NCBI GenBank assembly: GCA_963822245.1
Contig: CAWGGR010000006.1
Location: 144,779 to 208,778, forward strand
Source: an uncultured Solirubrobacteraceae bacterium
GTDB taxonomy: Bacteria; Actinomycetota; Thermoleophilia; Solirubrobacterales; Solirubrobacteraceae
Length of the DNA: 64,000 bases
Direction of reading: 5' to 3'
Shown: piece after piece, positions 9,248-59,275 of the stretch
Numbering within the stretch: the stretch's first letter is position 1
Layout of the letters: each line of letters opens with the position of its first letter
Program-made: the position numbers and the translations under genes
The notes under the pieces: model-generated
What the model was told of the DNA's origin: nothing
Database searches by the model: none
What the model saw: only the letters and a program-made list of their open reading frames with translations

Positions 9248-10762
9248 ATGAGGCTGCGAGGACTCCTGTCTGCGGCGATTGGCGCTGTCGCGCTCGCCGC
9301 GGTGCCCGCGGCGGCCACCGCCGAAGTTGTGACGCTCGGGGCCGCGGACCAGAACCAGACGCTCGTTGGTCCCGCGTTTGCGGGGTCTGAGGTGGTGTGG
9401 GCCGAGCGGGCGCTTCCCGGTGCCTCGCGCGCCCAGCTGTCGGTGCTCGCCGCGGTTCCGGGAGCGCACGGGTCGACGCTGTTCTCCACGCCGCCGCTGT
9501 CTTCGGCTGAAGATGAAATAGATCCCCTCGGCCTCGTCGCCTCGCCGACGAGGATCGCGCTCGCCTACCAGGTCGAAGTCCCCGAATGTGGCCGCCGCTC
9601 CGGGGCATGCCCCCAGCCGGATCTACGAGAAGTGCTCTCCGTGGCAGCGTTCGGCGGCACCCTCGGCGGACCGCTTCGCAGACTCACCGCCGCCGGCCTG
9701 AAGAACGGCGCGCTCGGTCTCTCAGGCGAAGAACTGGTGCTCGTCGAGCCACTGCGCACGGGCGGCGCCGGCGCATACGTGGAGAACCTCGCAGGCGCTG
9801 CGCCCGCACGTGACATTGGCATGGTCGGCACCGCCGGCGTATCGGTCGCCGGGCCCTACATCGCCAGCTCGAGCGCCGGCGCGATCACCGTGATGACGCT
9901 GGCCGGGGCGCCCGTCTACAGCGTGGCGCTGCCGCTCGCGGACGCGGCAGGATGCACCTCTGACTCAAGCGGAGTGGGCCGCGAACAGGACGGAAGCGCA
10001 CCGTGCGGCTACGCGCTCGACGCCGACGGCACGCTGGCGATCGCGGGCAGCGGCCCGGCGGGCCTCTACTGGGCCTCGCCCGCACAGCCACAGCTGCACC
10101 CGGTCGCGGTCACACTCGCAAGTCCTCTCGTTGCGATCGCCGACGATGAGATCGTCTACCTCAGCCCGCTCGGCGCAAACTCCACACAACTCGAGCTCAC
10201 CGATCTGTCCGGCGGCACGCGCGCGATCAGCTCCCCGATCAACGACGGCGGGGCGGGGCTCTCGGGGCTCGCGTTCAACGGCACGAGCGTCGCGTGGGCC
10301 GATCACTGCGTCTACGCCGCCGGCGTTGCTGCCGGCGCGCCGGGCGGCCCACCGGAACGCGCCTGTGAGGCGGTGACGATCCAGCCCGGCGAGAACGAAA
10401 GCACGAAGGTCGCCGCCGACGGGCGCGTCAGGCTTGCCTTGAGCTGTCAGTACTCGCCGTGCAGCGGCTCGTTGGCGCTGACGAGCACACTCGACAGGAG
10501 CATCGGCACGGGCAGGCGCACGAGGCTCAAGCAGGTGAGAGTGACGATTGCCAGCGGGAGCTTCACGGCGCTCCCGGTCAGGGAAGCCGACAGCGTCTCG
10601 CTCAGCCTCAACCAAAGGGGGCTGAGGCTGCTGCGCGAAAGCCGCCACGGCCTGAGCGCCACCCTGACGGCGACGGTAGCGCTCGCGTCGACTGCGCAGA
10701 CGACGAGCGCAGCCGTGTCCCTTCACAGCACAGGACCACGCCGCCGACCGCCGGACGAGTAG
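9248..10762 (+). CDS. Secreted beta-rich protein with Cys-containing basic C-terminal domain
   Basis: Signal peptide MRLRGLLSAAIGAVALAAVPAAATA; C-terminal LSCQYSPCSGSLAL...LSLNQRGLRLL. Confidence 0.7.
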   Translation: MRLRGLLSAAIGAVALAAVPAAATAEVVTLGAADQNQTLVGPAFAGSEVVWAERALPGASRAQLSVLAAVPGAHGSTLFSTPPLSSAEDEIDPLGLVASPTRIALAYQVEVPECGRRSGACPQPDLREVLSVAAFGGTLGGPLRRLTAAGLKNGALGLSGEELVLVEPLRTGGAGAYVENLAGAAPARDIGMVGTAGVSVAGPYIASSSAGAITVMTLAGAPVYSVALPLADAAGCTSDSSGVGREQDGSAPCGYALDADGTLAIAGSGPAGLYWASPAQPQLHPVAVTLASPLVAIADDEIVYLSPLGANSTQLELTDLSGGTRAISSPINDGGAGLSGLAFNGTSVAWADHCVYAAGVAAGAPGGPPERACEAVTIQPGENESTKVAADGRVRLALSCQYSPCSGSLALTSTLDRSIGTGRRTRLKQVRVTIASGSFTALPVREADSVSLSLNQRGLRLLRESRHGLSATLTATVALASTAQTTSAAVSLHSTGPRRRPPDE

Positions 10763-10846
10763 CCGAGCGGGGCCGCCTCTGGGTCGTCACCGGGACGGCC
10801 GCTGAGCGGCTAGGCACGAGCGGCGGCGCTTGCGATCGTATAGCTG

Positions 10847-11491
10847 ATGGACCCCTGCTCGAACAGCGTCTCGCGCCCACCCGCGACGCTCGCGCTCGGC
10901 GCGATCACGCTCACGCGCTGGCGCAGCAGCGACCTCGAGCCCCTGTTCGCAGCGGTCACGCGGAGCATCGAGCACCTGCGCCCATGGCTCGCGTTCGCGG
11001 GCGAGCACAGCCGCGACTCGATCGCTCGGTTCCTCGCCGACAGCGACAGCGGCTGGGAGCGCGGCGAGCACTTCCGCTACGCGATTCGTGACCGCGACGG
11101 GACGATCGCGGGCAGCATCGCGCTGATGGCCCGGATCGGCCCGAACGGGCGCGAGATCGGCTACTGGGTCGGCGCGCGCCACGTGCACAGGGGCATCGCC
11201 ACGCTGGCCGCTGCCGCGCTCACAGAGCGGGGACTCGCGCTCGCCGGTGTCGAGCACATCGAGATCCACCACGACGAGGCGAACCTCGCGAGCGCCGCGA
11301 TTCCCGCCCGGCTCGGCTTCCGCAAGCTCGGCACGTTCGCCGCCGAGCCGAAAGCGCCTGCGGATGCCGGTCGCGACGTGCGCTGGCGGCTCGACGCGGC
11401 CGACTTCGCCGCGAGCCCCGCGTGTGCCCTGCTCGCCGCGCTTCGCGCGCGCACGGTCACGCCCGGGCCTTCGCCGCAGAGGACGCGCTGA
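10847..11491 (+). CDS. RimJ/RimL-type GNAT acetyltransferase
   Basis: HLRPWL, EIGYWV...RGIAT, NLASAAIPARLGF. Confidence 0.88.
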   Translation: MDPCSNSVSRPPATLALGAITLTRWRSSDLEPLFAAVTRSIEHLRPWLAFAGEHSRDSIARFLADSDSGWERGEHFRYAIRDRDGTIAGSIALMARIGPNGREIGYWVGARHVHRGIATLAAAALTERGLALAGVEHIEIHHDEANLASAAIPARLGFRKLGTFAAEPKAPADAGRDVRWRLDAADFAASPACALLAALRARTVTPGPSPQRTR

Positions 11492-11518
11492 CGCGCTGCT
11501 CGATGCGGCCAGCCGGCC

Positions 11519-11950
11519 TCAGGCCTCGGGTGGGCTCTCGCCGGCGCGTGCGCGCGCCGCGACGACCTGTTCATGCACGTGCCAGTGCCAGCCTTCGCGC
11601 AGCTCGAGGATCGCCGCCGGCTCCTCCTGGCGCCAGTTGCGATGCAGCACGACCGCCGCGAACAGCGCCTCGGCGACGATGTTCGGGCGCTCGCGCACGG
11701 CGAGGTTGATGACCGTCAGCAGGTCTTCCGGCGCGGTCACCTCATACAGCTTTTCGAGCCCCCCCTGGCCTGCGTCGAGCACCTCGACGAGATCCGCGCT
11801 CGCGCTCATCGCGCGCTGTTCGGCAAGTGCGACGAGCGCGCCGCGCGCCTGCGCCGGGAGCGCGTCGATCGCCGCGTCGCGCTGCTCCTCGGACATCGAT
11901 GCGAACTCGCCGAGGAACCTCAGCACCCAGTCCTCCTCGCTCGCATTCAT
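11519..11950 (-). CDS. Hypothetical helical protein
   Basis: GAGGAG SD before ATG 11950; protein-like composition. Confidence 0.55.
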   Translation of the reverse strand: MNASEEDWVLRFLGEFASMSEEQRDAAIDALPAQARGALVALAEQRAMSASADLVEVLDAGQGGLEKLYEVTAPEDLLTVINLAVRERPNIVAEALFAAVVLHRNWRQEEPAAILELREGWHWHVHEQVVAARARAGESPPEA

Positions 11951-14014: not shown

Positions 14015-14428
14015 CTATTCGATCGTCACTGTTCCGCTGCTGACGGCGGCGACAGAGAGTTTCACGCCTTCCGCAACCGGAACCGGCGCCGGGAATTTGC
14101 AGGTGACCGCGAACGGCGTGGCTTTCGCTTCGCCACAGTCCGCCCAGTCGGCTTTCACCGGCGCGCTTTCGGTCAGTGCGGCCTTGACGTCGGTCGCGGC
14201 CTTGTTCAGGTCGAAGGTGACTTCCGTCATCGTCGTACCTGCTTCGTTGAACGTGTAGTTCGTCGGTGAAGCGACTTCGTAGCCACTCACCGTCGCTGAG
14301 CCGGCACCCGCCGAGTGTGCTTCGACCGTGTTGCTCGCGGTGAACGCGTATGCGCCCACCCCGATCACAGCCGCGAACACAAACGCCAGTACGCCGACGA
14401 GGTTTCGCTTCCTAAAATGCGTTGACAC
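14015..14428 (-). CDS. Small secreted SipW-cognate (TasA/CalY-like) protein, 137 aa
   Basis: GTG start with AAGGGGG SD; basic-hydrophobic leader ending GVGAYA-FTASNTV; beta-rich body with two Cys; adjacent to the SipW-type peptidase. Confidence 0.75.
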   Translation of the reverse strand: MSTHFRKRNLVGVLAFVFAAVIGVGAYAFTASNTVEAHSAGAGSATVSGYEVASPTNYTFNEAGTTMTEVTFDLNKAATDVKAALTESAPVKADWADCGEAKATPFAVTCKFPAPVPVAEGVKLSVAAVSSGTVTIE

Positions 14429-16163: not shown

Positions 16164-16176
16164 GGTCGCCGCGAGC

Positions 16177-17136
16177 TCAGCTCTGCCCGTAGCCGAGCAG
16201 CTCGAAGCTCTCGAGCGCCGCGTTCACCGCCCCCTCCGCGGCTTCGACCTGCTGCTTAGCGAGCGCGTATTCGCCCGGGTCTTCCGCGCTCGCGGCTGCG
16301 GCGAGCGCGGTGTAGGCGCTGCGCGCCTGCGCGATCGCCGCGGCGAGCGCCGTCTGCGCGGCGCTCGCCGCGGGCGGCGGTTCGAGCTTGAGGAGCGCTT
16401 CGGAGGCATCCGCAAAGCGGGTGGACAGAGCGCTCGCGAGCGGCGCGACCGCGGCGAGGCTTTCGCGGGCGTGGATCTCGCGGCGCAGCGTCACGCGCTC
16501 CTTCTCGAGCCTGCCGAGCAGCGGCGCGAGCTGGGCGGCGTAGGCGTTGTCCGGGCTGAGCACGTCGGCGGACTGGCCGACGAGCGTCAGCTGGTCGACG
16601 ATTTCTTCGCACTCGTGCAGGTCGGCCGCGTCGCCACTCGCCGCGTCGCAGGCGACGATCGTCGGCTGCGCGCCGAGGTTCGGGATCACATACAGGTCGA
16701 CGATGCGGTTGAAGCCGGGAACGCTCAGCTGGCTGTAGCGGTAGGCCTGGACGTTTGCGAGGCTCACCACTTCGGTGTGCGGCACACCGTGCAGGCGCGA
16801 GAGGAACGATTGCGGCAGTGGGCTCGCTCCGCTGCCGGCGAACTGCCCGCTGAACAGGCCCGCTCGCGCGGCGTCGCCGCCCGGCGCGAGCAGGAACGGT
16901 CGTGCGATCGCGATGCCGGGGACGGCCGGCATCGTGCTCACCCGCTGCCAGCTCGCGGGATATTCGAACAGGACCGTGCCCACCGAGCCGACGTGGGTCG
17001 GCCCGCTCTGCGCGACCGGCACGTCGCCGCCGCCCGCGCTCGATGTGCCATGAATCCCGACCAGATAGGCAACGATCGCGATCACCGCGAGAATCGGGAT
17101 CACGACCGCCGGCAGCACGCGATTTGAGCGATACAC
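16177..17136 (-). CDS. Membrane-anchored extracellular protein (alpha/beta domain plus helical bundle)
   Basis: N-terminal TM, FEYPASWQ start of domain, Ala-rich C-terminal helices; 3 bp from the upstream gene. Confidence 0.7.
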   Translation of the reverse strand: MYRSNRVLPAVVIPILAVIAIVAYLVGIHGTSSAGGGDVPVAQSGPTHVGSVGTVLFEYPASWQRVSTMPAVPGIAIARPFLLAPGGDAARAGLFSGQFAGSGASPLPQSFLSRLHGVPHTEVVSLANVQAYRYSQLSVPGFNRIVDLYVIPNLGAQPTIVACDAASGDAADLHECEEIVDQLTLVGQSADVLSPDNAYAAQLAPLLGRLEKERVTLRREIHARESLAAVAPLASALSTRFADASEALLKLEPPPAASAAQTALAAAIAQARSAYTALAAAASAEDPGEYALAKQQVEAAEGAVNAALESFELLGYGQS

Positions 17137-17139: not shown

Positions 17140-17646
17140 CTAACCGGAACTGTCGAACGACGTGCCGCTGCCTTCGTTCGCGGGCGCGGAGTGCGTGCTC
17201 GGCGGCGTCCCGCCGCTCGTCGGCGACGGCGTGCTCGCGGGGGTGCTCGGCGGCGCGCTCGCTGGCGCCGTGTGCTGGACGGGCGCCGTCTCCGCCGGCG
17301 CGCTGACGCTCGGCGCGAGCACGACGTGCGCTTTCGCCGGTGTGCTCGGCGTCGGGGCCGCATGGCTCACGACCGCCGCTGGGGGCGGTGGTGGCGGCGG
17401 GCTCGTCAGCGCCAGCTCCGGCGCACCGCCGAGCGCGGCCGGCACGACGACCGTGGATGTGCTCACGGGCAGCCGCAGCGGGGCGACTTCGCGCGGGGCA
17501 GGGACCTGGCGCTCCCTGCGACCGATGGTGTAGAAGCCCGCGAACACAGCCGCGCACAGGCATGCCGTGAGCAGCAGGGTGCGCATGTCGATGCGGGTGT
17601 CGCGAGGGACCGGGGCGCCGCGCGAGCTGATGTTGAGGCTGTTCAT
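17140..17646 (-). CDS. Pro/Thr/Ser-rich single-TM protein
   Basis: TM LLLTACLCAAVFAGFYTIG then a low-complexity Pro-rich tail; TGATG overlap with the adhesin stop. Confidence 0.65.
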   Translation of the reverse strand: MNSLNISSRGAPVPRDTRIDMRTLLLTACLCAAVFAGFYTIGRRERQVPAPREVAPLRLPVSTSTVVVPAALGGAPELALTSPPPPPPPAAVVSHAAPTPSTPAKAHVVLAPSVSAPAETAPVQHTAPASAPPSTPASTPSPTSGGTPPSTHSAPANEGSGTSFDSSG

Positions 17647-20600
17647 CAGGTCGGGCAGGCGATCGGGATCGTGCCGGCGGGGTTCAGGCAGCTGTCAAAG
17701 CGTGACGGCAGCTTGCCGCGGCGGACCGTGAAGCGCATGAACTTGCCGATCTCGCCGGGACTCGAGACCTTGATTTCGAGGATCACGCCCGCAGGCAGCG
17801 AGCGCTCGAAGCGGCGCAGCGTGACGAGCACTGTGCCGAGCTTGCTCTTGCTCGCGCCCGATGAGGCGACAACGCTCTCGGACTTGCTCGGGCAGCCGTG
17901 CCCGCGACAGGTGACGTTGACGGTCGCGCCAACCGGGGCGAGCACCGTCAGCAGGCTCACCTTGACGCTCAGCGCGTGCTCGGTGCCGGCGATGCGCACG
18001 ACCGGGAAGGGCTGCATCACTTTGACCGCCGGCGCGGTCACCGTGATCGTCTTGCTGACCGTGCTGCTGAGGCCGTTCGCGTCGGTCACACGCAGCTGCA
18101 CGACGTGCGGGCCGACGGTCGTGAAGATCGTGCTGAGCACGGCCGAGCCCGGCTGGAAGACGTTGTTGCCCGCGACCGCCCACGCGTATCCGGTGATCGC
18201 GCTGTCAGCATCGCTCGAGGTCGACGCGAGCGTCACGGGTTCGCCGGTGTGGGGCGCGCTCGGCAGCCACTCGAACGAGGCGACCGGCGGCACCGGCGTC
18301 GACGTCGCGGGCGCCGCAGGCGGCGCGAGCACGGTGAAGGTCGACGGTTCGCTGACGCCGATGTTGCCGACGTCATCGGCCTGTTCGGCGAGCAGTGTGT
18401 AGGTGCCGGGGGCGAGGCCCGAGAAGACCGTCGACCAGCTCCCGATCGCGACCGGGACCGTCACCGTCTGCAGCGCCGCGCCGCCCACGCCGCTGCCCGC
18501 ATACAGGTGCACGGCGACGGCCGGCTGATCGCCCGCCGCCCTCCCCGCCGCGCCGGAGGCGGTCTCCGCCGTGCCCGTGGTCGATGTCCCCGTGACGGGC
18601 GCCGTGAGCGTCACCGCGGGCGCATCCGCGTCGACCGTGAACACCGCCGTCGCGGCGCTGATCGTGGTCGGACCTCCGGGTTCGCGCTCTTCTGCCTGCG
18701 CGACGTAGCTGACGCCGTCGCTGAGGCTCGGCACCGGCCCAACGGCCCAGTCCGCGGTCGTGAGCGCAACGGGCGTCGGCGTCGGCGTTACCAGCCGGTA
18801 GGACGGCCATTCATAGATCTTGACCGTCACCGTGTTGCCTTCGCCGGTGGGCGCCGTGCCGTGAAAGGTCGGGTTGGCGCTCGAGAACAGTTCCGTGCCG
18901 CGCGGCACGCCGACGTTTTCAAGCGTCACCACGGTCGTTACCGTGAATGACACCGGTTCGCTCGTGCCGATGTTGCCGGCGCTATCCGCCTGCTCGGCGA
19001 TCACCGTGTAGACGCTGCCGTTTTTCAGCGGTTTCACGGGTGACACCGCCCAGTGTCCTGCCTTCACCGCAACTTCGATGACTTCCACCGGCGTTCCCGA
19101 CGCCGTCGCGCCGAGATAGATCTTCAGGTCGACGGTTGGGTCATCGCCGGTGAGTTCCCCGGCGGGGCCGCTGAATGTCGGTTTGAGTTCGTTCAGGCCC
19201 GCGTCGTTCGCGGGCGTCGTGATGCCGACGGCCGGCGGCGTCGTGTCGATCGTGAACGTCATCGCGGCGCTCCTGCCGACGTTGCCGGCCTCATCTTCCT
19301 GGGTCGCCTGCGCGGTGTAGGTGCCGTCCGCCAGGTGCGGCACGTCAAACGACCATGTGTCGCCGCTGACCGTCCCGGTCCCGGAGGCGGCGATCGTGCC
19401 CTTGGCTTCGCCGCCCTCGAAGACGGTGACCGCGACCGTCGCGGCGTCGCCGGGTTCGGTCCCCGCGGTGCCGCTCAGCGTCGGTTCCGTGTCTTTGCCC
19501 GGCGTCGGCACCGTGTTGATCGTGACCTTCGGCTTGACCGTGTCGATCCTGAACTCGACCGGGGCGCTGACGCCGACGTTGCCCGCGTCGTCTGACTGTT
19601 CGGCGACCGCGGTGTACGTGCCGTCGCCGAGCGTCGCACCGCTCGTGCCGGTGCTCCACGCGCCCGCTTTCGCGGGCGCGGTCAGCGTCTCGGATGGGCT
19701 CCCCGAGGCCGTTGCGCCCGCGTAGAGCTTGACCGTCACCGTCGGTTCATCGCCCGCAAGCTCACCGGCGAGGCCGCTGAACGTCGGCTTCGGGACGTTC
19801 GAGGCGCCGGCTGTCGGCGTCAGCAGCGAGACGACGGGCGGCGTCGAATCAATCGTGAACGTCGCCTTCTTGCTGAAGCCGTGATTGCCCGCTTCGTCTG
19901 ACTGTTCGGCGATCACCGTGTAGGTGCCGTCAGCGAGGTGCGGAGCGGTGAAGCTCCAGTCGCCGGTTTTCAGTGGCGCCGGGCCCTGCGCGGCGACCGT
20001 GCCCGTGGGTTCGCTGCCTTCATAGATCGTGACGTTCACCGCGCCGTCGCCGCTCGCGACGCTGCCGGTGCCGGTGAAGGTCGGCGTCGAGTCGTTCATC
20101 AGCACCGCAACCGGGTTCAACGTGACGAGCGGCTTGACGGTGTCGATGACGAATGTCCGCGGCGGCGTGCTCGTGCCGAGGTTGCCCGCCGCGTCTGACT
20201 GTTCGGCGATCGCCGTGTAGGTGCCGTCGGCGAGATGTGCAGGCGTGAAGGACCAGCCGGCGCCGCTCACCACCCCGAGCCCACTCGCGGCGATCGTCCC
20301 TGACGGCGAGCTGCCCGCGAAGATCGTGACTTTCACGTTCGCGGAGTCGCCCGCTTCGGTCCCGCGCACGCCGGTCAGCGTCGGCGTCGGGTTGTTCCCC
20401 GGAGATGGCACTTCGGCCATCGTCACCTTCGGCGCGACCGTGTCGATCGTGAACGTCACCGCTTTGCTCGAGCCGACGTTGCCCGCTTCATCCGACTGCG
20501 TAGCGATCGCGGTGTACGTGCCGTCGGCGAGGTGCGGGCCGGTGCTGCCCGTCGTCCAGCTGCCGGCGGCTGCCGGCACGTCGAGGGTGTCCGCGGGGCT

Positions 20601-22643
20601 GCCGCTCGTTCCTTCCCCGGCGTAGATCTTCAGCACGACCGTCTGCAGATCGCCGCTCGCCTGCCCGGCGCCGCCGCCGAACGTCGGCTGCGAGACATTC
20701 AGCGCGCCCGCCGCGGGGCTCGTCAGCGAGACTTTCGGGGCGCTCGTATCGACCGTGAAGGTCACCGGTGCGCTCACGCCGACGTTGCCCGCCGCGTCGA
20801 GCTGTTCGGCCACGGCCGTGTATGTGCCATCAGCGAGCGCGGGCACCGCATTCGTGCTCCACGCGCCCGCTTCGATGCTGACGTGCGAGAGCGTCTGCAC
20901 GGGCGTCCCTGTCGGCGTCGCGCCGCTGTAGATCTTCAGCGCGAGGGACGGTTCATCGCCGACGGCCTGGCCGCCGCTGCCGCTGAAGGTGAGCGTCGCC
21001 GCTTTTGAGATCGTGCCAGGCGCCGGCGCCGTGATCGCGACCAGCGGGGCCGTCGTGTCGACGGTGAACATAATCGTTTTGCTGACGCCGAGATTGCCCG
21101 CGTCATCGGACTGTTCGGCGATCGCGGTGTAGGTGCCGTCGGCGAGGTGCGGCGAGGTGAACGACCACGCGCCCCCGCTCACCGTCGGGGTGCCGGAGGC
21201 TGCTGGCGTCCCCGACGCCGCGGAGCCTTCGTAGATCTTCACCGCGACAGTCGCGGAATCGCCCGATTCCGTGCCGCCGGCGCCGCTCAGCGTCGGTTTC
21301 GGGTTTTTCGTCGGCGAGGCGAGCGTGTTGAGCGTGACCGCCGGCTTGACGGTGTCGATCGTGAACGGCACGCTGTTGCTCGTGCCGATGTTGCCCGCTT
21401 CATCGCTCTGCACAGCTTCCGCTGTGTAGCTGGCGTCGGCCAGATGCACCGATTTGTACGTCCACACGCCGCCGATCACCGGCACGGTTTCGACGACCGC
21501 CGGTTTGTCCGCCGAGGGTTTGCCCTTGAAGATCGTCAGCGTGACCGTCGGGCGGTCGCCCAGCAGCGTCCCCGCGGTGCCGCTCACCGTCGGCGTCGGG
21601 TTGTTCGACGCTGGCGCCATCGCGTTGATCGTCACGACCGGCTTGACGGTGTCGATCGTGAACGTCGTGCTCGCGCTGAGGCCGACGTTGCCCGCTTCAT
21701 CGCTCTGGGATGCGCGCGCGGTGTAGACGCCGTCGCTGAGGTGGGCCGCGGCGAACGACCAGGTGGCCCCGGTCGGGGTGACTTCGGCCGTCTGCGCGAC
21801 CGTCCCTTCCGGCGCGCTGCCGTGGTAGATCGTGACGGTCACGTGCGGGTGGTCGCCGGGCGCGATGCCGGCGCCGCCCGCCAGCGTCGGCGTCGCGTTG
21901 TTGCTCCACGGCGGCATGCTCGTCAGCGTCACCGCGGGCGCGGTCGTGTCGACCGTGAACGTCACCGCCTTGCTCGTGCCGAGGTTGCCGGCTGCGTCTT
22001 CCTGGGAGACCTGGGCGGTGTAGGTGCCGTCCGCGAGTTCAGCGACGGCGTGCGTCCAGCCGCCGCTTTCAACCGGGACGCTGGCCGATTCGACCGTCGC
22101 GCCGGCGAGCGTGGCGCCGGCGTGGATCGTCAGCTCGACGTTCTTGTCGTCGCCCGCTGACTCGCCCGCTTCGCCGCTGAGCGTCGGCGTCGAGTCTCTG
22201 CTCGGAGTCGGCACCGTGTCCAGCGTGACCACCGGCTTGGTCGTGTCGACCGTGAACGTGACTTCGGCGCTGCCGGTTTCCGCTTCGATCGTCTGTTCGG
22301 CGACGGCCGTATATTCCCCCTGTTCGAGCGGTTCCGGGGAGATTTCCCAGGTGCCTTCGAGAAACGGCAGGGCGAACTGCTGTTGCACCGGTGTGCCGCC
22401 GGCAACGGAGCCGCTGTAGATGTCGAGCGTGACGAACCCGCCCAGCGGGGCGCTCGTCGTGCCGCTGAACAGCGGCGTCCGGCTGCGTGTGAAGCTGCCG
22501 TTGAGCGGTTCGCTGATCGTGATGCCCGGCGGCGCCGCGAGCGCGTCCGCCGCGGGCATCGCGACGAGCGCGAGCAGCGCCAGCAGCGCGGCGGCAAGCG
22601 CGCGCGCAAGGGTCCTGCCAACCACTGTCCGAACGCCGCTCAC
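17646..22643 (-). CDS. Large secreted adhesin: 14 bacterial Ig-like repeats, PKD domain, Cys-containing C-terminal domain (~1665 aa)
   Basis: Likely GTG start at 22643 with signal peptide (ARALAAALLALLALVAMPAADALA); 14 counted units ending GTYTAxAEQSDxAGNxGxSxxxTFTIDT; PKD-like PVASF...YAW...VQLRVTD. Confidence 0.9.
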   Translation of the reverse strand: MSGVRTVVGRTLARALAAALLALLALVAMPAADALAAPPGITISEPLNGSFTRSRTPLFSGTTSAPLGGFVTLDIYSGSVAGGTPVQQQFALPFLEGTWEISPEPLEQGEYTAVAEQTIEAETGSAEVTFTVDTTKPVVTLDTVPTPSRDSTPTLSGEAGESAGDDKNVELTIHAGATLAGATVESASVPVESGGWTHAVAELADGTYTAQVSQEDAAGNLGTSKAVTFTVDTTAPAVTLTSMPPWSNNATPTLAGGAGIAPGDHPHVTVTIYHGSAPEGTVAQTAEVTPTGATWSFAAAHLSDGVYTARASQSDEAGNVGLSASTTFTIDTVKPVVTINAMAPASNNPTPTVSGTAGTLLGDRPTVTLTIFKGKPSADKPAVVETVPVIGGVWTYKSVHLADASYTAEAVQSDEAGNIGTSNSVPFTIDTVKPAVTLNTLASPTKNPKPTLSGAGGTESGDSATVAVKIYEGSAASGTPAASGTPTVSGGAWSFTSPHLADGTYTAIAEQSDDAGNLGVSKTIMFTVDTTAPLVAITAPAPGTISKAATLTFSGSGGQAVGDEPSLALKIYSGATPTGTPVQTLSHVSIEAGAWSTNAVPALADGTYTAVAEQLDAAGNVGVSAPVTFTVDTSAPKVSLTSPAAGALNVSQPTFGGGAGQASGDLQTVVLKIYAGEGTSGSPADTLDVPAAAGSWTTGSTGPHLADGTYTAIATQSDEAGNVGSSKAVTFTIDTVAPKVTMAEVPSPGNNPTPTLTGVRGTEAGDSANVKVTIFAGSSPSGTIAASGLGVVSGAGWSFTPAHLADGTYTAIAEQSDAAGNLGTSTPPRTFVIDTVKPLVTLNPVAVLMNDSTPTFTGTGSVASGDGAVNVTIYEGSEPTGTVAAQGPAPLKTGDWSFTAPHLADGTYTVIAEQSDEAGNHGFSKKATFTIDSTPPVVSLLTPTAGASNVPKPTFSGLAGELAGDEPTVTVKLYAGATASGSPSETLTAPAKAGAWSTGTSGATLGDGTYTAVAEQSDDAGNVGVSAPVEFRIDTVKPKVTINTVPTPGKDTEPTLSGTAGTEPGDAATVAVTVFEGGEAKGTIAASGTGTVSGDTWSFDVPHLADGTYTAQATQEDEAGNVGRSAAMTFTIDTTPPAVGITTPANDAGLNELKPTFSGPAGELTGDDPTVDLKIYLGATASGTPVEVIEVAVKAGHWAVSPVKPLKNGSVYTVIAEQADSAGNIGTSEPVSFTVTTVVTLENVGVPRGTELFSSANPTFHGTAPTGEGNTVTVKIYEWPSYRLVTPTPTPVALTTADWAVGPVPSLSDGVSYVAQAEEREPGGPTTISAATAVFTVDADAPAVTLTAPVTGTSTTGTAETASGAAGRAAGDQPAVAVHLYAGSGVGGAALQTVTVPVAIGSWSTVFSGLAPGTYTLLAEQADDVGNIGVSEPSTFTVLAPPAAPATSTPVPPVASFEWLPSAPHTGEPVTLASTSSDADSAITGYAWAVAGNNVFQPGSAVLSTIFTTVGPHVVQLRVTDANGLSSTVSKTITVTAPAVKVMQPFPVVRIAGTEHALSVKVSLLTVLAPVGATVNVTCRGHGCPSKSESVVASSGASKSKLGTVLVTLRRFERSLPAGVILEIKVSSPGEIGKFMRFTVRRGKLPSRFDSCLNPAGTIPIACPT

Positions 22644-37700: not shown

Positions 37701-37761
37701 ACACCGCGACCAACCCGAAGACGAGCAGCAGGATCAGCAGATTCGTGCGGCGATCGGTCAT
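34720..37761 (-). CDS. secDF: Fused protein translocase subunit SecDF
   Basis: LGLDLKGG, ADANIVIFERVKEE, GIDFKSGT, YSLYDTIIVFDRVREN. Confidence 0.97.
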   Translation of the reverse strand: MTDRRTNLLILLLVFGLVAVSLVVIATKPTRLGLDLKGGVQLTYQGKPTAQAKVDTESLNRAIDIMRKRVDQLGVAQPEIGLAGSNQIAVALPAVGSVRQAEEEVGRTAQLQFYDWEPNVIGANGQSAATEGTVTGDATSTGAGGVAAGLPEYEAILRAAKRPPILRKSDTTWSKGCTAAQVGECIFGSWYLLDTTHQKVLCASDKVTCAPAETEKALYTGVTLPAGAKVKAVRVNPGTVLVQAHPEESANGKVGNPSPNSWYVLNDEPVLNGADITNPQQGFDEGGGGTGQPNVTFGFTSHGKTVFEQVTKKIAERGQEAQLPGVGKEAALQHFAVALDGQLITAPSIDYTKYPEGIDASTGSEISGGFTITTAQNLASELQSGALPIKLVLISRSQVSATLGKQALKEGLLAGLIGFAIVCLFLLVFYRMLGAIAVGGLVIYGIYFFALIKLIPITLTLPGIAGLILTIGIAADANIVIFERVKEEIRGGRSVISGIATGYKRGFAAIVDANVVTFMTAFILFALATSEVKGFAFTLGIGTLLTLFTAVLATRAALGVMGRSKFVSHPSMLGAARRGRGWTFDFMGASKWFFSLSGTILLIGALAIGGKGLNFGIDFKSGTRIQTALIRSASEGEVTATLKSAGIKDAEVQKISNKNIGGNGFQISTKTLAPDAVKHAESALNDKFGSGKTPGTKNFSSTSIGPTFGKTVAKSALIAIIASLLVISAYIALRFEWKYAVPVLIALMHDLLITAGVYSLTGREVTSATVAALLTILGYSLYDTIIVFDRVRENVPRMPRAAFSQIVNRSMSEVLTRSLATSFCTLLPVTALLLFGGETLKDFAFALTIGIASGAYSSIFIASPVLTHWKEREGTYRVRRARIVRELGAVPAYATTASGAQEDVEPEVRKRRTRSGSLTSPEQPGQQISRDEFQELVRDIDADVSPGAGAAGRRAGAQPGEQRSGSSATATPPAAPERDPTADLTPEDLVLKDDAKPRPKNKRPRNRRHGRSR

Positions 37762-45725: not shown

Positions 45726-47135
45726 ATGAGCACCCCCGACATCTTCAAGGCGTATGACATCCGCGGCCTCTACGGCGAGCAGATCGACGGCGATCTCGCC
45801 GAGCGGATCGGGCGCGCGTTCGCGCGCGTGCTCTCGCAGCTCGCCGGCAAGCCCGTGGCGGAGCTGCGCGTCGGCCTCGGGCGCGACATGCGCCTCACCG
45901 CCCCCGAGCTCGCGGCGCGCTATTGCGAGGGGCTGCTGTCAGCCGGCGCCGACGTGCTCGACGCCGGTCAGGTCGGCAGCGAGATGCTGTATTTCCTCGT
46001 CGGCTCGCGCGAGCTCGACGGCGGGCTGATGTGCACCGCGTCGCACAACCCGAAGGCGTACACGGGCGCGAAGCTCGTGCGCGACGGGGCAATCGCACTG
46101 TCCGGCGACTCGGGCATCGGCGACATCCGCCGCGAGGTCGAGGCCGAGATCGCCTCCGGCGCGCGCGCAGCACCGGCGCGCGGCACCCGCGAGGAGGTCG
46201 ATCTCTACGGCGAGTTCCAGGCGGCCGCGCTGCGCTTCATCGATCCCGCCGTGATCGGCGGCGAGCACGGGCGCCGCCTGAAGGTCGTGCTCGATGGCGG
46301 CAACGGCATGGCCGGGCCGATGGTCGGCCCGCTGCTCGAGCGCCTCGATCTCGAGCTGATCGAGACCTACTGGACGCCCGACGGCAACTTTCCCGACCAC
46401 GAGCCCAACCCGCTGCTACCGGAGAACCGGGCGATGATCATCGAGCGCGTGCGCTCGAGCGGCGCGGACCTCGGGATCGCCTGGGACGGCGACGCCGACC
46501 GCTGCTTCTTCATCGATGACAGCGGCGCGTTCGTGGACGGCGACTTCCTCACCGCGCTGCTCGCCGAGTCGCTGCTGCGCACGAACCCCGGCGAGGCGAT
46601 CCTCTACGATGTGCGCGCCTCGCGTGCCGTCGCCGACACCGTCACGCGCGCCGGCGGCAAGCCGTACGTCAACCGCGTCGGGCACGCGTTCTTCAAGACC
46701 CGGATGCGCAGCGAGGGATCGCTGTTCGGCGGCGAGGTCTCCGGGCACTACTACTTCCGCGACTTCTACTGCGCGGACTCCGGCACGCTGCCGGCGCTGC
46801 TCGTGCTCGAGCTGCTCGCGCGCGAGGGCAGGAGCATGTCCGAGCTGCTCGCGCCCTACCACGCCAGGTACTTCATCTCCGGGGAGATCAACTCGGAGGT
46901 CGCCGATGCGGGCGCGAAGATGGAGGAGATCGCCGAGCACTACGGCGACGCCCGCCAGCAGCGCCTCGACGGCATCTCGATCGACTACGAGGACTGGCAT
47001 TTCAACGTGCGCTCGTCCAACACCGAGCCGCTGCTCAGACTGTGCCTCGAGTCGCTGGTCTCGGTCGCGGACATGGAACGCCGGCGCGACGAGGTGCTCG
47101 CACTGATCCGCTCGCCGGCGACGGCCCGGTCGTGA
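45726..47135 (+). CDS. Phosphomannomutase/phosphoglucomutase
   Basis: FKAYDIRG, TASHNP, DGDADR, GEVSGHYY, RSSNTEP. Confidence 0.95.
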   Translation: MSTPDIFKAYDIRGLYGEQIDGDLAERIGRAFARVLSQLAGKPVAELRVGLGRDMRLTAPELAARYCEGLLSAGADVLDAGQVGSEMLYFLVGSRELDGGLMCTASHNPKAYTGAKLVRDGAIALSGDSGIGDIRREVEAEIASGARAAPARGTREEVDLYGEFQAAALRFIDPAVIGGEHGRRLKVVLDGGNGMAGPMVGPLLERLDLELIETYWTPDGNFPDHEPNPLLPENRAMIIERVRSSGADLGIAWDGDADRCFFIDDSGAFVDGDFLTALLAESLLRTNPGEAILYDVRASRAVADTVTRAGGKPYVNRVGHAFFKTRMRSEGSLFGGEVSGHYYFRDFYCADSGTLPALLVLELLAREGRSMSELLAPYHARYFISGEINSEVADAGAKMEEIAEHYGDARQQRLDGISIDYEDWHFNVRSSNTEPLLRLCLESLVSVADMERRRDEVLALIRSPATARS

Positions 47136-48280: not shown

Positions 48281-50935
48281 TTGCATCGCCTGCCGATAGG
48301 CGAGCAGCGCGACGGGAACGTCGTCAACTGCAGGGTGACCTGTGAGCAGCACTCCGGGCAGCCCTGCGGACCGGCGCCGACCATCTCCCTCGCGGCCCGT
48401 GCGCGGGCGTTCGCGATCGTCGTGCTCGCATGCTCTGCCTCGCTCACCGCGCCGGGCGCCGACGCCGCCTCGGGACCGCATCGCAGCCACGCGAGCGCAC
48501 ACAGGCGCGGCCCGCGCGAAGCTTCCGGCGCGGCGATCTCCGAAGCTACCCCCCTGCTGACCGGCGGGCCTCCGCGCAACATCCAGCCGCCGGCGATCTC
48601 CGGCGAAGCGGTCCAATTCCAGGCCCTGAAGACGACGACAGGCGGATGGGAAGGCACCGCGCTGGAATACTCCTACAGCTGGAAGAGCTGCGACGCCGAG
48701 GGCGAATGCAGCGAACAGGCAGGGCCGGCGAACACGTACATGCTGAGCTCGTCCGACGTCGGCAACACGCTCCAGGTGACGGTCACGGCGAGCGACGCGG
48801 GCGGTGAAGCGCAGGCGACCTCGAGTCGCTCGGCGATCGTCCGCTCGGCATCCGGCGGCGTCGGCGTCGGCTGGGGCGAAGACTGGTTTGGAAATCTCGG
48901 CACGATCTACCGCACGGTCGACGAAGCGTCCCATGTCCCGATCGCCGAAGGACTCGGCGGGATCAAGTCGCTGGCTGCGGGTGAGAGCAGCGGCTACGCG
49001 CTGCTCGACAGCGGCGAAGCGGTCGCCTTCGGAGCGAACGGCCACGGCCAGCTCGGCGACGACAGCGAGGACCACTCCTACTTCGACGAAAAGAGCGACG
49101 TCCCCGTCGAGCAGGAACTGGGCGACGGGCAGATCGTGCCGTTGACGGGCATCCAGTCGATCTCACCCGCCGGCGACCACGCCCTCGCACTGCTCGAAAA
49201 CGGCACCGTCAAGACCTGGGGCAGCAACGGATCCGGTCAGATGGGCCGCGGCACGGGAGGCTTTGAACACGAAACGCACGAACGCACCGTGCTCGCGACG
49301 ACCGTCAGCTCGCTGAGCAGACACGCGCTCGCAGAACGAGGGCTTCCGGAAGTCGTCGCGGTCCAGGGCGCCGGCGGAGATGACTTCGCGATCCTCGCCA
49401 ACGGCGAGGTGATGGGCTGGGGCAACGACGAGTACGGCCAGACCGGCGTCGGGCCGCCCCACTATGAAGCGGACGGCACGACGATCGTCAAGAGCGAACT
49501 CTGCCACACCGAAGCGGGCTTCGAACGGTGCATCAAGGAACCTCGCCCGGTCGTGTTGGCGAACGGCGAACCGCTGCTCGGCGTGGCGGCGCTGACGGGC
49601 GGCACGGCGTCCACGTACGCGCTGCTCGGCGACGGTCAGGTGATGGCCTGGGGATCCAACGCGAACGGACAACTCGGTCGCGGCATGTCGGCGCCGGCGG
49701 GCACACACACACGCAACGCCCCGCCCGCGCCCGTCGTCGAAGCTGCAGGTGAGCCGCTGAGCGGGGTGCGCAGTGTGACAGCGGGCGACACGCACGCGCT
49801 CGCGCTGCGTGCGAACGGCGAAGTGGTCGGCTGGGGCGACGGCGAACAGGGCGAGCTCGGCAACGCGCCCGAGGAGGAATGCGGCGCGGGAGCGGGCCCC
49901 GACGACAGCGGAGCGCTGCGCCGGGGAAAGGGCGGAGCCCATCAGTGCGTCAGGTTCGCGACCCGCGTGATCGCCGCGGACGGGCTGCGCCCGGGACGCG
50001 CTCCGATCAGGGAAATCTCGGCGGGCGGCAAGTTCAACCTCGCCGTCGACAGCGCCGGGCGGGTCTACAGCTGGGGGTCCGACAGCGACAGCCAGCTCGG
50101 CGACGCCAGCACGAACAGCTCCGGCAGGGCCTCACCGAAGCTCGTCAACGAGCCCGGCCCGGTGATCCAGGCGGTGACCGGCGAGAAATTCGCGCTGACC
50201 CTGCTCCGCGAAGGGACGCCGACGGCGCCTGCGCCGCTCGCCATCCAGCGGCGCGTCGGTGCGTTCGATGTGACGTGGGGCTTTGCAGCGGAACGGCTCC
50301 TGTACCACGTCGGCAGACGGACGGAGCCGGGAGATCCGAGCGAACGCCCGGAATTCTCGCTCCAGGAAACCGGCCCACCGGAAGACGTGCTGCGCCCCGC
50401 GATCGAATTCCACAACCCCGAAGAAATCGCCGAGGAAGGCCTCGAGCTCAGCGCCGAGAGGGGCCAGTGGAGCGGCGAACGCCCGTTCACGATCTCGATC
50501 AGGTGGCAGCGCTGCCCGGCCGGCGTGAGCGAAGCCGGGCAACTGGACGAACAGTGCGAAAACCTTTCGCGCCAGACGCTCCAGCACGAAACCGGGGAGC
50601 GCTCGGAAGACGAGTACATTCCCGAAGCGGCCGACGTCGGTCACACGCTCCGCTTCCTCGTCACGATCAGAGACCAGTATGTTCCCGAAGGCGGCGGCGC
50701 GAAGGTGCGCGGCGAAGCGAGCCTCCCGTCGGAAACGACCGGCGAAGTACAGCGTGCGTCGGCCGGCGGGCGGACCGAACAGATCAAAGCGACGGCGATT
50801 CAGGAACGCCTGATCACGGCGCTCAAGGGCGAACCGCTGCGCCAGATCCCCTACGAAATCGACCTCGACCAGGGACCCGACACGCACCCGCGGATCATGC
50901 GCGCGACCCCGCTCGCCAAGGAATCGGCCGGCTAA
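48281..50935 (+). CDS. Secreted RCC1/BLIP-II-like propeller flanked by two Cys-containing Ig-like domains (start uncertain)
   Basis: WG.N..GQ.G and AG..H.LAL...G.V repeats; N- and C-terminal W..C...C...Y...DVG.TL modules. Confidence 0.85.
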
Positions 50936-55461: not shown

Positions 55462-55474
55462 CACCCTCCCGCAC

Positions 55475-56092: not shown

Positions 56093-56094
56093 CC

Positions 56095-57651: not shown

Positions 57652-57686
57652 CGCCGGGACGGTATCGGCTCCTGCGGCGCCAGGCA

Positions 57687-57699
57687 TGCGGGAAATTAC
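57687..57699 (-). promoter_or_regulatory. Shared 13-bp motif site 3 (GTAATTTCCCGCA on minus strand)
   Basis: 36 bp upstream of the regulator GTG; TACCGT (-10-like) lies 22 nt downstream. Confidence 0.65.
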
Positions 57700-57761
57700 G
57701 GATGTCGACACGGAGCCTCGCAGCGCCGGGGACCCGTTCCGCCGAGGGCGAGCGGCCCAGG

Positions 57762-58658
57762 CTAGGCTGCGGCCCCGCTCGTCTGCTTCGACGAGGCAGC
57801 AGCGTCATCGGCGGACCCGGGCGAGGAGGCGCGCGGCAGCACGAGCAGGGAGCTGCGTACGTGGCGCTCCAGGTAGTCGCTGGTGGTACCGAGCACGAGC
57901 CGCTTGACAGGGCCGTATCCGCGTGAGCCGACGACCAACAGGTCGAGCGCGCCGCTGAAGGTCGCGAGCTCCTCGCCTGCCAGGCCGTAGACCGCCCGTC
58001 CCTCGACGCCGGGGAGCGCGCCCATGCGCTCGTTCGCCTCCGCGACGATCAGATCCACGCTGTCACCGACCGACGGCATCATGATCCCCGTATAGGTGAT
58101 CGTCGGAATCGAGACGACTTCCAGCGCGTGAACCGTCCCCTCGATCTGCGCTGCGAGCTCGCGTGCCGCCGCGAGCGCCGCCCGGCCCTCGGGGGACTCG
58201 TTGTAGCCGACTCCGACCCGCGAGACCGCGCTCGCTCGCGCGCTGAAACCGAGGGCCGCGACCGCAACCGCACAGGAGGCACCGTTGAGTGCCGAGCGGG
58301 TGTCGTCGCCGAGCATCGCGCGACCGAGGGCGCCGTGCCTGCACGAGCCGACGACGAGCAGGTCCGCGCCCTGCTCCTCGGCCTGCTCATGCAGGCCGCG
58401 TCCGGGGCTGATCGCCTCGATACCGATGAGCTGCGCGTCCACCTGCGCGGCGTCGCGCTCCCGCTCGAGCAGCTGTTGGGCGGCGCTGCGCTCTTCTCTG
58501 ACGACGCCGGGGCTGATCGCGTGCGAGGGGCGCAGGGCGCCGCTGTAGACGTACGCGAGCGTCAGCTTCGCGTCCGGCCCCGCGAGGCGACCGGCGAGCG
58601 CGATCGCGTCACGTCCGTTGGGCCGGCCGTCGATTCCCACGAGTACGTTGTTGAACAT
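57762..58658 (-). CDS. Universal stress protein (tandem USP domains)
   Basis: MFNNVLVGIDG, LLVVGS, LLVVGSRGYGP. Confidence 0.93.
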   Translation of the reverse strand: MFNNVLVGIDGRPNGRDAIALAGRLAGPDAKLTLAYVYSGALRPSHAISPGVVREERSAAQQLLERERDAAQVDAQLIGIEAISPGRGLHEQAEEQGADLLVVGSCRHGALGRAMLGDDTRSALNGASCAVAVAALGFSARASAVSRVGVGYNESPEGRAALAAARELAAQIEGTVHALEVVSIPTITYTGIMMPSVGDSVDLIVAEANERMGALPGVEGRAVYGLAGEELATFSGALDLLVVGSRGYGPVKRLVLGTTSDYLERHVRSSLLVLPRASSPGSADDAAASSKQTSGAAA

Positions 58659-58702
58659 CACTGGCCTCCTTGTGTTTGCCCGCGCGCTGGCGCGTCGCGC
58701 GC

Positions 58703-59275
58703 TCACGTTGCGGTGATGAAGCCGCCCATATAGCCGGCGTGCTCCATCGCCCAGCCGTTCGCGTTGCTGTCGCAGGGAATCACGCAGAACCACGAGAAGC
58801 GACCTTTTTCTTTGACGACCATCTCGTAGGTGTGAATTCCCGGTTTGACGATGATGTTCACGCCGATCTCCGGCGAGGTGATGCTGTGTTCCCCTTCGTC
58901 GGTGTTGTCGATCTTCAACTCGAGCGTCTGGCCGACTTTGACGTTGAATTCGGTCTTCGTGTAGTAGTCGTGTTTCTTCCCGTCCGGGCCGAGTCGGCCT
59001 TCCGGAATGACCTTCAGGCTGATCAGCTCCGGCGCCACCCTGCTCGGGGCGCCCGCGGCGGTCGAGCTCGTCGCCGGGGGCGCCGCGCCGCTCGTGATCG
59101 TGACCGTGTTGTGTTCGCTGCTGTTGTTCAGGGCGATGATCGACATCAGCAGCGCAGCGAAGACGCCGACGCCGGCGAGCACCTCGAGCACGACCTTGCC
59201 GTCCCTTGTGACCGTCTCATCGAAGTCCGCCTGGTCGCGGGCCTCCGTCTCCTCGTCTGGCTCTGGGACATGCAT
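58703..59275 (-). CDS. Membrane-anchored cupredoxin-domain protein
   Basis: TM helix, then GEHSI and WFCVIPC...MEHAGYM copper-ligand candidates. Confidence 0.8.
   Translation of the reverse strand: MHVPEPDEETEARDQADFDETVTRDGKVVLEVLAGVGVFAALLMSIIALNNSSEHNTVTITSGAAPPATSSTAAGAPSRVAPELISLKVIPEGRLGPDGKKHDYYTKTEFNVKVGQTLELKIDNTDEGEHSITSPEIGVNIIVKPGIHTYEMVVKEKGRFSWFCVIPCDSNANGWAMEHAGYMGGFITAT

Follow-up and report, generated by a model that had tools for sequence, protein, structure and literature searches.

Introduction

Reassignments of sense codons are documented in bacteria: a Codetta screen described them for Arg codons (PMC8629427), and in high-GC Acidimicrobiales ACA has passed from Thr to Asp (bioRxiv 10.64898/2026.05.03.722492). 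Here we compare such systems with a pattern in an uncultured Solirubrobacteraceae bacterium, in which the choice between the two Glu codons, GAA and GAG, depends on where the residue resides, and in which the only tRNA with a UUC anticodon carries a fifth arm. The pattern was noticed in a window of 64,000 nucleotides (C6:144779-208778; genome of 3.44 Mb, 70% G+C, 8 contigs), whose initial annotation, made from the letters alone, held that exported proteins prefer GAA and that cytoplasmic genes use GAG almost throughout. It proposed a translation-level feature tied to export, listing tuning of co-translational secretion, lower mRNA structure and, most speculatively, non-standard decoding of GAA.

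The case resembles reassignment after codon loss, the codon capture of Osawa and Jukes, in that a rare A-ending codon of a high-GC actinobacterial lineage has lost its cognate tRNA, a tRNA of altered identity appears to have taken over, and the codon has spread to new positions. Unlike in known reassignments, however, Glu stays the commonest residue in relatives and the codon still acts as Glu inside the cell; moreover, the tRNA is five-armed, and use of the codon is partitioned by membrane side, which is reported for none of them. In Candida, the Ser/Leu ambiguity of CUG and the cell-surface variation that goes with it are a precedent for ambiguous decoding. Candida shares with the present case a hybrid-identity tRNA and consequences mainly at the cell surface, but it is a eukaryote, its tRNA is known to accept two amino acids, and it has no residue-level topology rule. 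Dedicated, structurally unusual tRNAs are also familiar from tRNA-Sec and tRNA-Pyl, whose arm geometry marks them for dedicated enzymes, SelA and PSTK reading the D-arm (reviewed in PMC7609411). Those tRNAs serve stop codons at few sites, whereas the codon here is a sense codon used more than 13,000 times, and neither a conversion enzyme nor a special elongation factor has been identified for it.

Codon biases of secreted proteins are a further point of comparison. Secreted effectors of Magnaporthe oryzae are enriched in AAA, CAA and GAA, a bias linked to U34 tRNAs (bioRxiv 10.1101/2025.11.10.687658); GAA and AAA rise here as well, but CAA is unaffected, and the rule operates residue by residue rather than as gene-level translational control. 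Rare codons of all kinds cluster in signal peptides and at the 5' ends of secreted genes (PMC2833160). That bias is likewise associated with secretion, whereas the one described here spans whole mature domains, not the 5' part alone, and involves only Glu, Lys and Arg (AGR) codons. Lastly, EpmA and EpmB, a LysRS paralogue and a lysine aminomutase, beta-lysylate EF-P (PMC2821294), and a comparable pairing of a LysRS-family enzyme with a lysine aminomutase is encoded in this genome; EpmA lacks an anticodon-binding domain and is partnered by a 2,3-aminomutase, whereas the enzyme found here is full length and its partner is a B12-dependent 5,6-aminomutase. Full-text literature searches returned no description of the codon pattern, of a change at GAA, or of the five-armed tRNA.

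Genome-wide codon usage by protein location

Genes were predicted with our own codon-model gene caller (2986 genes, 87% coding). The GAA share, GAA/(GAA+GAG), was 0.119 in cytoplasmic proteins (4548/38194) and rose to 0.261 in polytopic membrane proteins, 0.526 in signal-peptide proteins and 0.615 in lipoproteins, with an odds ratio of 8.7 between location classes (Fisher p about 0). Location was assigned by crude heuristics (signal peptide, lipobox, hydrophobic or transmembrane segments). Of the 321 proteins placed in the signal-peptide class, about 60 appear to be misassigned; as their usage is all GAG, they dilute the effect rather than create it.

The shift is narrow in codon terms. Log2 odds ratios between the classes were +3.12 for GAA, +1.57 for AAA, +1.20 for AGA and +0.95 for AGG, and the remaining 55 codons all lay within +/-0.42. 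The initial annotation had noted that Lys AAA also rises and that Gln stays mostly CAG, and both observations extend to the whole genome: AAA rises less than GAA, and the share of CAA is flat (0.046 vs 0.050). The G+C content of third codon positions (GC3), with Glu and Lys codons left out, is likewise nearly equal between classes (0.908 vs 0.904). An equal effect on all NNA/NNG pairs had been named as the signature of simple relaxed selection; across the genome Glu, Lys and AGR codons alone move, which excludes horizontal transfer, relaxed selection and general A-richness. Horizontal transfer had already been judged a poor explanation, and the stillness of the other codon families agrees with that judgement, as does the presence of the effect within genes and in the core gene secDF. 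Expression level is excluded as a cause because the region of the ribosomal-protein and EF-Tu genes is GAG-type (GAA share 0.107); the favoured codon is enriched neither in highly expressed genes nor at conserved sites, and only three codon families shift, which departs from an expression-linked bias.

Two local explanations were considered and rejected. GAA is favoured beside Gly, Ser and Lys, and GAG beside Ile, Leu and Arg, but such neighbours, whether taken as nucleotide or as dipeptide context, modulate the choice and do not determine it. Avoidance of Shine-Dalgarno-like GAGG fails because the following base has little influence and AGG itself rises. Lys AAA obeys the same location rule as GAA, more weakly in the host and strongly in the phages described below. 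As a separate observation, Leu TTA hardly occurs at all (14 + 4 codons in about 640,000), despite the tRNA-Leu(UAA) gene that the genome carries.

Residue-by-residue choice in SecDF and other membrane proteins

The rule was followed in detail in SecDF, for which relatives were found at 80 loci with 72-80% identity, all from metagenome-assembled genomes (MAGs) of uncultured soil or peat Solirubrobacteraceae (Thermoleophilia). In a codon alignment of 70 orthologues, nearly every Glu column is pure GAA or pure GAG. Columns 57, 79, 213, 356 and 764 read 67/0, 69/0, 70/0, 70/0 and 70/0 (GAA/GAG), and columns 117, 381, 483, 487, 488, 793 and 813 all read 0/70; at many outside columns GAA reaches about 97%. 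The loops of the membrane domain alternate, with GAG at 483, 487, 488, 736, 793 and 813 and GAA at 531, 764 and 838, so that the early remark that the effect occurs within genes and in core secDF extends, loop by loop, across the alignment. Within the periplasmic P1 domain the GAG-only columns 41, 104, 117, 152 and 381 are interleaved with GAA-only ones, and columns 102 (46/0) and 104 (0/60), two residues apart, have opposite codons. A purity statistic F, calculated over 50-79 orthologues, was 0.90 for GAA/GAG, as against 0.15-0.36 for ordinary synonymous pairs, 0 for CAA/CAG and 0.54 for AAA/AAG; the serine pair AGC/TCG, which cannot interconvert in one step, gave 0.93.

Comparison with 16 outgroup genera shows what kinds of positions these are. 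The GAA-only columns of P1 are variable polar positions in the outgroups. Glu is conserved at two of the GAG-only columns, 117 and 41. The remaining GAG-only columns, 104 (Gln in outgroups) and 152 and 381 (Leu in outgroups), are Glu residues new to the clade, and as they are strictly GAG, the explanation that new Glu codons are simply GAA is ruled out; a "young codon" origin of GAA was rejected on the same ground and because the GAA columns are stable across the 70 species. Where GAA columns vary, the replacement is Gln, Asp or Asn more often than GAG-encoded Glu, and it is never Lys or Arg; Asp makes up 3% of the cells. An alternative idea, that GAA columns are unusually frozen, was dropped, since their conservation in the clade (0.65) lies within the range for Ser, Thr, Gln, Asn and Lys (0.54-0.70).

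The same holds genome-wide. In polytopic proteins oriented by the positive-inside rule, the GAA share is 0.16 in inner and 0.32 in outer loops (p = 5e-29), a topology comparison of the kind proposed in the initial annotation, and no other codon pair differs between the inner and outer loops of these proteins. Codon choice follows the residue, not the gene.

A five-armed tRNA and its distribution

Inspection of the tRNA-Glu gene set, another proposed check, revealed that the canonical UUC tRNA has been replaced. ARAGORN and Rfam searches found no canonical tRNA-Glu(UUC) in the genome and a single canonical tRNA-Glu, with anticodon CUC. The sole UUC anticodon belongs to a 96-nt gene (C1:946930-947025, outside the window) with acceptor stem GCGCCCG, D stem GCTC/GAGC (C11-G24), anticodon loop CTTTCAA, a 5-nt variable loop AGGCC and discriminator A73; at about position 20 of the D-loop a 7-bp hairpin capped by UUCG is inserted. 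No other tRNA of the genome is able to pair with GAA. Among its paralogues tRNA-Arg(UCU) is the closest, with tRNA-Met and tRNA-Lys next. The determinants of tRNA-Glu comprise, in the body, U11-A24, U13-G22:A46 and the lack of nucleotide 47, and, in the anticodon loop, U34, U35, C36 and A37, the main GluRS determinants being those of the anticodon (PMC9976931). The 96-nt tRNA lacks the body determinants, having C11-G24 and a 5-nt variable loop, and possesses all four of the anticodon loop.

This tRNA is present, nearly invariant, in 32 of 32 clade genomes tested, one of which has two compensatory hairpin pairs. Across host and phage copies 5 of the 7 pairs show compensatory changes, which identifies the extra arm as a real structure; a review of non-canonical tRNAs makes no mention of such an arm. 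The flanking genes (glycerol kinase, polysaccharide deacetylase, alpha/beta hydrolase) include none related to tRNA. Searching with the whole tRNA by BLAST across the class was abandoned as unspecific, the matches being mostly 3' halves of tRNA-Arg(UCU), tRNA-Lys and tRNA-Asp.

Canonical tRNA-Glu(UUC) occurs in other genera of the family (g2-g5, g7) and in other families. The initial annotation had proposed repeating the counts in related genomes. The SecDF pattern is shared by the clade (70 species), whereas no location effect was detected in 100-kb samples of eight relatives outside it, namely three sister genera, three other families of the order and two further families, in which GAA accounts for 1-11% of Glu codons; five of the eight (G053, G289, G119, G007, G015), or their genera, have the canonical tRNA-Glu(UUC), and one has a variant of the five-armed tRNA. 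The effect is confined to one genus-level clade of Solirubrobacteraceae. In one clade genome (G323, C2:5233-5261) a canonical-looking 3' half of tRNA-Glu(UUC) lies on a second contig and could be contamination or a retained copy.

Codon usage in Tat-motif proteins and phages

Proteins with a canonical twin-arginine motif, which are exported after folding by the twin-arginine translocation (Tat) system, are GAA-rich (GAA/GAG 18/6, 17/8 and 14/27; Rieske protein 5/5). Phages extend the comparison to proteins that use neither Sec nor Tat. Seven IMG/VR contigs carry genes for the five-armed tRNA(UUC), on which the phage-host links rest; four were read, and codons were counted by PHROG annotation in two phages of 62 and 53 kb. 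Tail fibre or spike proteins have GAA/GAG counts of 43/4 and 58/2, minor tail proteins 18/4, 15/7, 13/9, 5/0, 19/6 and 9/2, virion structural proteins 20/5 and 20/6, and a head-tail adaptor 12/8. Glycosyltransferases (1/16, 0/16, 0/10), methyltransferases (3/14, 1/22) and a helicase (2/28) show the opposite usage. In total, virion proteins have 244 GAA and 68 GAG and enzymes 7 and 106 (p = 8e-44); Lys AAA follows (88/68 in virion proteins vs 2/33 in enzymes, p = 9e-9), and CAA does not differ between the virion and enzyme proteins of the two phages. Tape-measure proteins are mixed (54/45, 67/55).

Two small open reading frames (ORFs) directly upstream of the tape-measure gene are GAG-type (1/12, 3/9, 1/7, 2/10; total 7/38). 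They occupy the position of tail-assembly chaperones, proteins that do not form part of the virion. As virions never pass Sec or Tat, the kinetics of translocation cannot be the cause, and the presence of GAG-type genes inside late structural operons argues against expression timing. We infer that the codon follows the final destination of the residue, not the route of its export. In phage G336 a block of glycosyltransferase and methyltransferase genes, all GAG-type, is flanked by the genes of the major head protein and the head-tail adaptor (L289:5692-11458) and may serve glycosylation of the virion. Another phage, G338 (82.8 kb, 53% G+C), carries about 29 tRNA genes besides the five-armed tRNA(UUC), and its gene blocks at 90-98% GAA (for example 53/2, 40/1, 35/1) adjoin GAG-type blocks.

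Functional glutamates outside the cytoplasm

Catalytic and metal-binding Glu residues are encoded by GAG even outside the cytoplasm. The Glu of HExxH motifs is GAG in 50 cases and GAA in one; seven of these motifs belong to exported or membrane proteins rich in GAA (P = 1.5e-3 after allowing for the usage of each gene). The Glu of the CuA motif CAELCG in CoxII is GAG in a gene with 7 GAA and 3 GAG, and the Walker-B Glu of ABC proteins is GAG in 35 of 35 cases. Also, a family of at least five GAA-rich paralogues with the motif HEVFH, probably secreted metalloenzymes, always has GAG at the Glu of that motif (C2:228773, C2:230495, C2:215793, C3:170931, C4:118793).

Residues and codons at equivalent sites in relatives

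Alignment with three sister genera (identity about 60%) placed Glu at 0.48 of cytoplasmic GAA sites and at 0.61 of GAG sites; the corresponding values are 0.27 and 0.58 for polytopic proteins (p = 5e-11) and 0.19 and 0.31 for exported ones (p = 0.02). GAA is thus depleted at the conserved Glu of exported proteins, the opposite of what is expected of a preferred codon. The other residues at exported GAA sites include Asp (0.14), Ala (0.14), Arg (0.13), Gln (0.08) and Lys (0.07); since none of the standard residues except Glu is prominent, reassignment to a standard amino acid is not supported. GAA and AAA sites alike show weaker conservation in relatives.

Codon exchange was followed against a congener at 75% amino-acid identity, a distance at which synonymous sites have reached saturation; for exported proteins the comparison covers just 21 orthologue pairs. 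Exported GAA was kept as GAA in 0.45 of cases and became GAG in 0.11, and exported GAG changed to GAA in about 0; for a saturated control pair, GTG was kept in 0.35 and became GTC in 0.31. If GAA stood for Asp, Lys, Gln, Gly, Ala, Val, or the same Glu as GAG, drift to G/C-ending codons, such as all other codon families undergo, would be expected, and it is not seen.

The exported proteome has changed in composition as well. Exported orthologues of this genome contain, per 100 residues, 4.6 Arg, 4.2 Asp, 2.1 GAG-encoded Glu and 3.2 GAA, those of the sister genera 8.6 Arg, 6.1 Asp and 4.2 Glu; Ser, Thr, Asn and Gln are higher here. With GAA counted as Glu, the net charge of exported proteins moves from about +2 to +3 in G053, G289 and G071 to -2.9 per 100 in this genome (G000).

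The codon split inside the window

Genes of the window with signal-peptide-like N-termini have GAA shares of 0.59-1.0 and cytoplasmic genes 0-0.1 (Table 1). A recount confirms the observation and agrees exactly with the initial annotation for the cupredoxin, in which Glu codons 5, 8, 9, 11, 20 and 31 are all GAG and 6 of the 11 after the helix are GAA. Of the gene names it gave, Pfam agrees with those for the Big_13, Vgb_lyase/TIG, RCC1, cupredoxin and phosphoglucomutase/phosphomannomutase products, whereas the name "TasA-like" found no match. An ordinary tRNA-Arg(CCG) gene at positions 3124-3200 (+) is unrelated to the split.

Table 1. Glu codons of genes in the window (positions are those of the window)
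Product	Position	Strand	GAA	GAG	Remarks
Lipoprotein	4843-5343	+	11	3	lipobox AGC
Signal-peptide protein	9242-10762	+	13	9	no Pfam match
Small exported protein	14015-14380	-	8	0	"TasA-like" in the initial annotation; no Pfam match
N-terminally anchored or exported protein	16177-17136	-	10	7	
Ig-like (Big_13/PKD) adhesin, exported	17646-22625	-	57	15	Big_13; Pfam
Fused SecDF	34720-37761	-	24	25	codon alternates with membrane topology
Vgb_lyase + TIG + He_PIG protein, exported	43437-45554	+	38	11	Pfam
Phosphoglucomutase/phosphomannomutase	45726-47135	+	1	36	cytoplasmic control; Pfam
RCC1-repeat surface protein	48281-50935	+	57	20	Pfam
Membrane-anchored cupredoxin	58703-59275	-	6	5	counts for outer domain; cytoplasmic N-terminus and helix 6/6 GAG

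A second LysRS beside lysine 5,6-aminomutase

Outside the window, the genome encodes an extra full-length class II LysRS (LysRS-B; C1:476347-477903, 518 aa) that scores as a true LysRS. It opens an operon (C1:476347-481363, L303:6347-11363) that continues with KamD, KamE and a gene for an uncharacterized 364-aa product; KamD matches PF09043, lysine 5,6-aminomutase, with 732 bits, and the operon is syntenic in three of the four other clade genomes. LysRS-B is present in all five clade genomes tested and absent from four of the five sister genomes probed, the fifth (G053) having only a long LysX-like ORF. Among 51 genera sampled, an orthologue was found only in genus g1; the 50 other genera of the family yielded none, their matches reaching just 38-53% identity.

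Relative to solved LysRS structures, the anticodon-binding OB fold of LysRS-B shows a conserved change of KTKVGELS to VTQRGQLA, and its lysine pocket has conserved changes from ELY to EFM and from NAF to SGD. The pocket changes fall at what we take to be E. coli residues 280, 424 and 426. Because GAA sites are Glu-like and never Lys-like, LysRS-B probably does not charge the five-armed tRNA; it may instead have to do with the AAA effect or with some other process, such as a modification of the EpmA/EpmB kind. A search for a sign of glutamate mutase by way of a B12-domain paralogue, a weak test, found KamE alone with phmmer. Elsewhere among the synthetases, AspRS types differ within the clade (PF00152): G000 has a long bacterial-type enzyme of 590 aa, and G204, G312, G330 and G305 have only a class IIb form of about 438 aa, which suggests a synthetase replacement within the clade.

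Discussion

The codon tracks the final environment of the residue, and does so only where the odd tRNA exists. This favours a residue at GAA that differs from the one at GAG, one that would make almost no difference inside the cell, be of advantage on surfaces outside it and be unsuited to catalysis. As a finished protein keeps no memory of a codon except the residue itself, the five-armed tRNA most likely delivers such a non-equivalent residue, whether altered, non-standard or mixed; judged from sequence comparison, we give this reading a probability of about 0.45. Non-standard decoding, the most speculative of the options first listed, has thus become the one that the evidence favours best, although it is not proven. 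GAA was rare in the ancestor, as it is in the eight relatives (1-11% of Glu codons). The clade exchanged its GAA decoder, canonical tRNA-Glu(UUC) giving way to a five-armed tRNA of Arg/Lys type, and GAA spread outside the cytoplasm, in exported proteins, outer loops and the virions of phages with the same tRNA. Selection maintains GAA at exposed extracellular positions and GAG in the cytoplasm and at catalytic or metal-binding Glu. The residue delivered would be Glu-like and yet distinct from that of GAG. Among the marks of sense-codon reassignment, the canonical tRNA is lost and a tRNA of altered identity is present, and synonyms have stopped interchanging in SecDF and exported proteins, though not in cytoplasmic ones.

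Several observations weigh against a non-equivalent residue. The UUC-A37 anticodon holds the strongest GluRS determinants, so that charging with plain Glu is plausible, and no second GluRS was found in the genome. Glu is the commonest residue at GAA sites of relatives in every class (0.19-0.54), and GAA does not match another amino acid in conserved columns, as a reassigned codon would. Cytoplasmic GAA becomes GAG in the congener in 0.43 of cases, which indicates that inside the cell the two are freely exchanged synonyms. Lys AAA shows its location effect without an odd tRNA to explain it. The Codetta and KACI code screens report no change at GAA. In genus g17 of family f3 (G169, G029; L083/L085/L133/L134), a related tRNA(UUC) with the same 3' half and a much longer insert in the 5'/D-region coexists with GAA at 1-3% and no location effect. 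Lastly, the clade represents a single evolutionary origin known from MAGs, localization is heuristic, and exported pairs are few.

The prevalence of Glu at GAA sites of relatives does not separate the readings, since GAG turns into GAA by a single transition and a recent change of any kind would leave that trace. Within-clade exchange, catalytic sites and the phage data discriminate between the readings. The strongest competitor, itself rather unlikely, holds that GAA is plain Glu and that selection acts on codon or tRNA, through decoding speed, the supply of the five-armed tRNA when extracellular and late phage proteins are produced, or some effect of the extra arm on ribosome or folding, in such a way that GAA in exposed loops benefits beta-rich proteins outside the cell. 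The anticodon determinants, the single GluRS, the predominance of Glu in relatives, the free cytoplasmic exchange, the silence of the code screens and the similar behaviour of AAA with an ordinary-looking tRNA all fit it, and the neighbour preferences resemble a contrast of loop and core. Yet it would have to resolve single residues (102 versus 104) over 70 species by no known mechanism; extracellular catalytic Glu is GAG, GAA is depleted at conserved exported Glu, no other A-ending codon has been recruited, genes of the tail operon split by the location of their product and not by timing, and the relatives outside the clade, five with canonical tRNA(UUC), lack the effect. Ambiguous decoding, with the five-armed tRNA charged by Glu and in part by another residue, is improbable. 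A mixture might be tolerated or even useful on surfaces, as variation against phages, predators and proteases, and be avoided at critical sites, as GAA is at catalytic ones; the hybrid tRNA, a Glu anticodon on a Lys/Arg-type body with A73, U34 and U35, and a clade-specific second LysRS with an altered anticodon-binding motif would suit it. But ambiguity leaves the active preference for GAA at outside columns unexplained, GAA sites never exchange with Lys or Arg, and relatives do not accept these residues at cytoplasmic GAA sites.

Outright reassignment of GAA to a standard amino acid, be it Lys through the second LysRS, or Asp, Gln or Asn, is very improbable. Loss of the canonical tRNA, gain of a Lys/Arg-type one and the extra LysRS point that way, and the exported sum of basic residues would be 11.0 per 100, close to the 12.1 of the sister genera, if GAA were basic. 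However, only Glu is conserved at GAA sites in relatives, there is no decay to G/C-ending codons, Asp is rare in GAA columns, and the rate of cytoplasmic exchange with GAG is incompatible with a reversal of charge; Arg and Lys, to which tRNA body, composition shift and LysRS-B had all seemed to point, were ruled out by the exchange spectra. Slightly less credible still is tuning of co-translational Sec export by slow Glu and Lys codons, or lower mRNA structure, both put forward in the initial annotation. That signal-peptide proteins and the periplasmic domains of SecDF are enriched suits these ideas, but Tat-motif and virion proteins show the effect, relatives with the same secretion machinery do not, other A-ending codons are unused, and the codon matches the position of its own residue rather than that of residues about 40 upstream in the exit tunnel. 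A codon that flips between columns two residues apart and is fixed in 70 species speaks against both, as does the GAG of catalytic Glu outside the cell, and the suggested dependence on 2-thiouridine-modified tRNAs is a misfit, since Gln CAA is unaffected. Ordinary causes (horizontal transfer, relaxed selection, expression level, young codons at replaced sites) have next to no probability left. Exported proteins do evolve faster, and the weaker conservation of GAA and AAA sites would agree, but other codon families and GC3 are alike between classes, ribosomal-protein genes are GAG, GAA columns are stable across 70 species despite saturated synonymous sites, and the Glu new to the clade at 104, 152 and 381 is GAG.

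An extended form of the non-equivalent-residue reading, bolder and decidedly doubtful, is a split code for the extracellular proteome, in which GAA would specify a non-standard Glu-like residue and AAA perhaps a lysine isomer charged by LysRS-B. One candidate for the isomer is 2,5-diaminohexanoate, which the neighbouring lysine 5,6-aminomutase would supply; the lysine pocket of LysRS-B is remodelled (Tyr to Met, Asn to Ser, Phe to Asp). Special residues would then serve surfaces facing the soil, in cell proteins and phage virions alike, and plain Glu (GAG) and Lys (AAG) the cytoplasm and catalysis; a possible benefit would be protection from soil chemistry or from proteases specific for Glu or for Lys/Arg. 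Such a pressure would also be in keeping with the halving of Arg and GAG-encoded Glu in the exported proteome relative to the sister genera.

The usual assumption is that synonymous codons yield the same protein, but here the two Glu codons act like different residues, sorted by membrane side. This holds for over 30 tested species as well as for phages whose genomes encode the same tRNA. If GAA is plain Glu after all, a mechanism of an unknown kind must select codons residue by residue according to destination, which would be just as unexpected. If it is not, this would be a natural, proteome-wide and compartment-specific split of a sense-codon box, a new kind of change in the genetic code, and every predicted protein of this abundant soil lineage would be slightly wrong.

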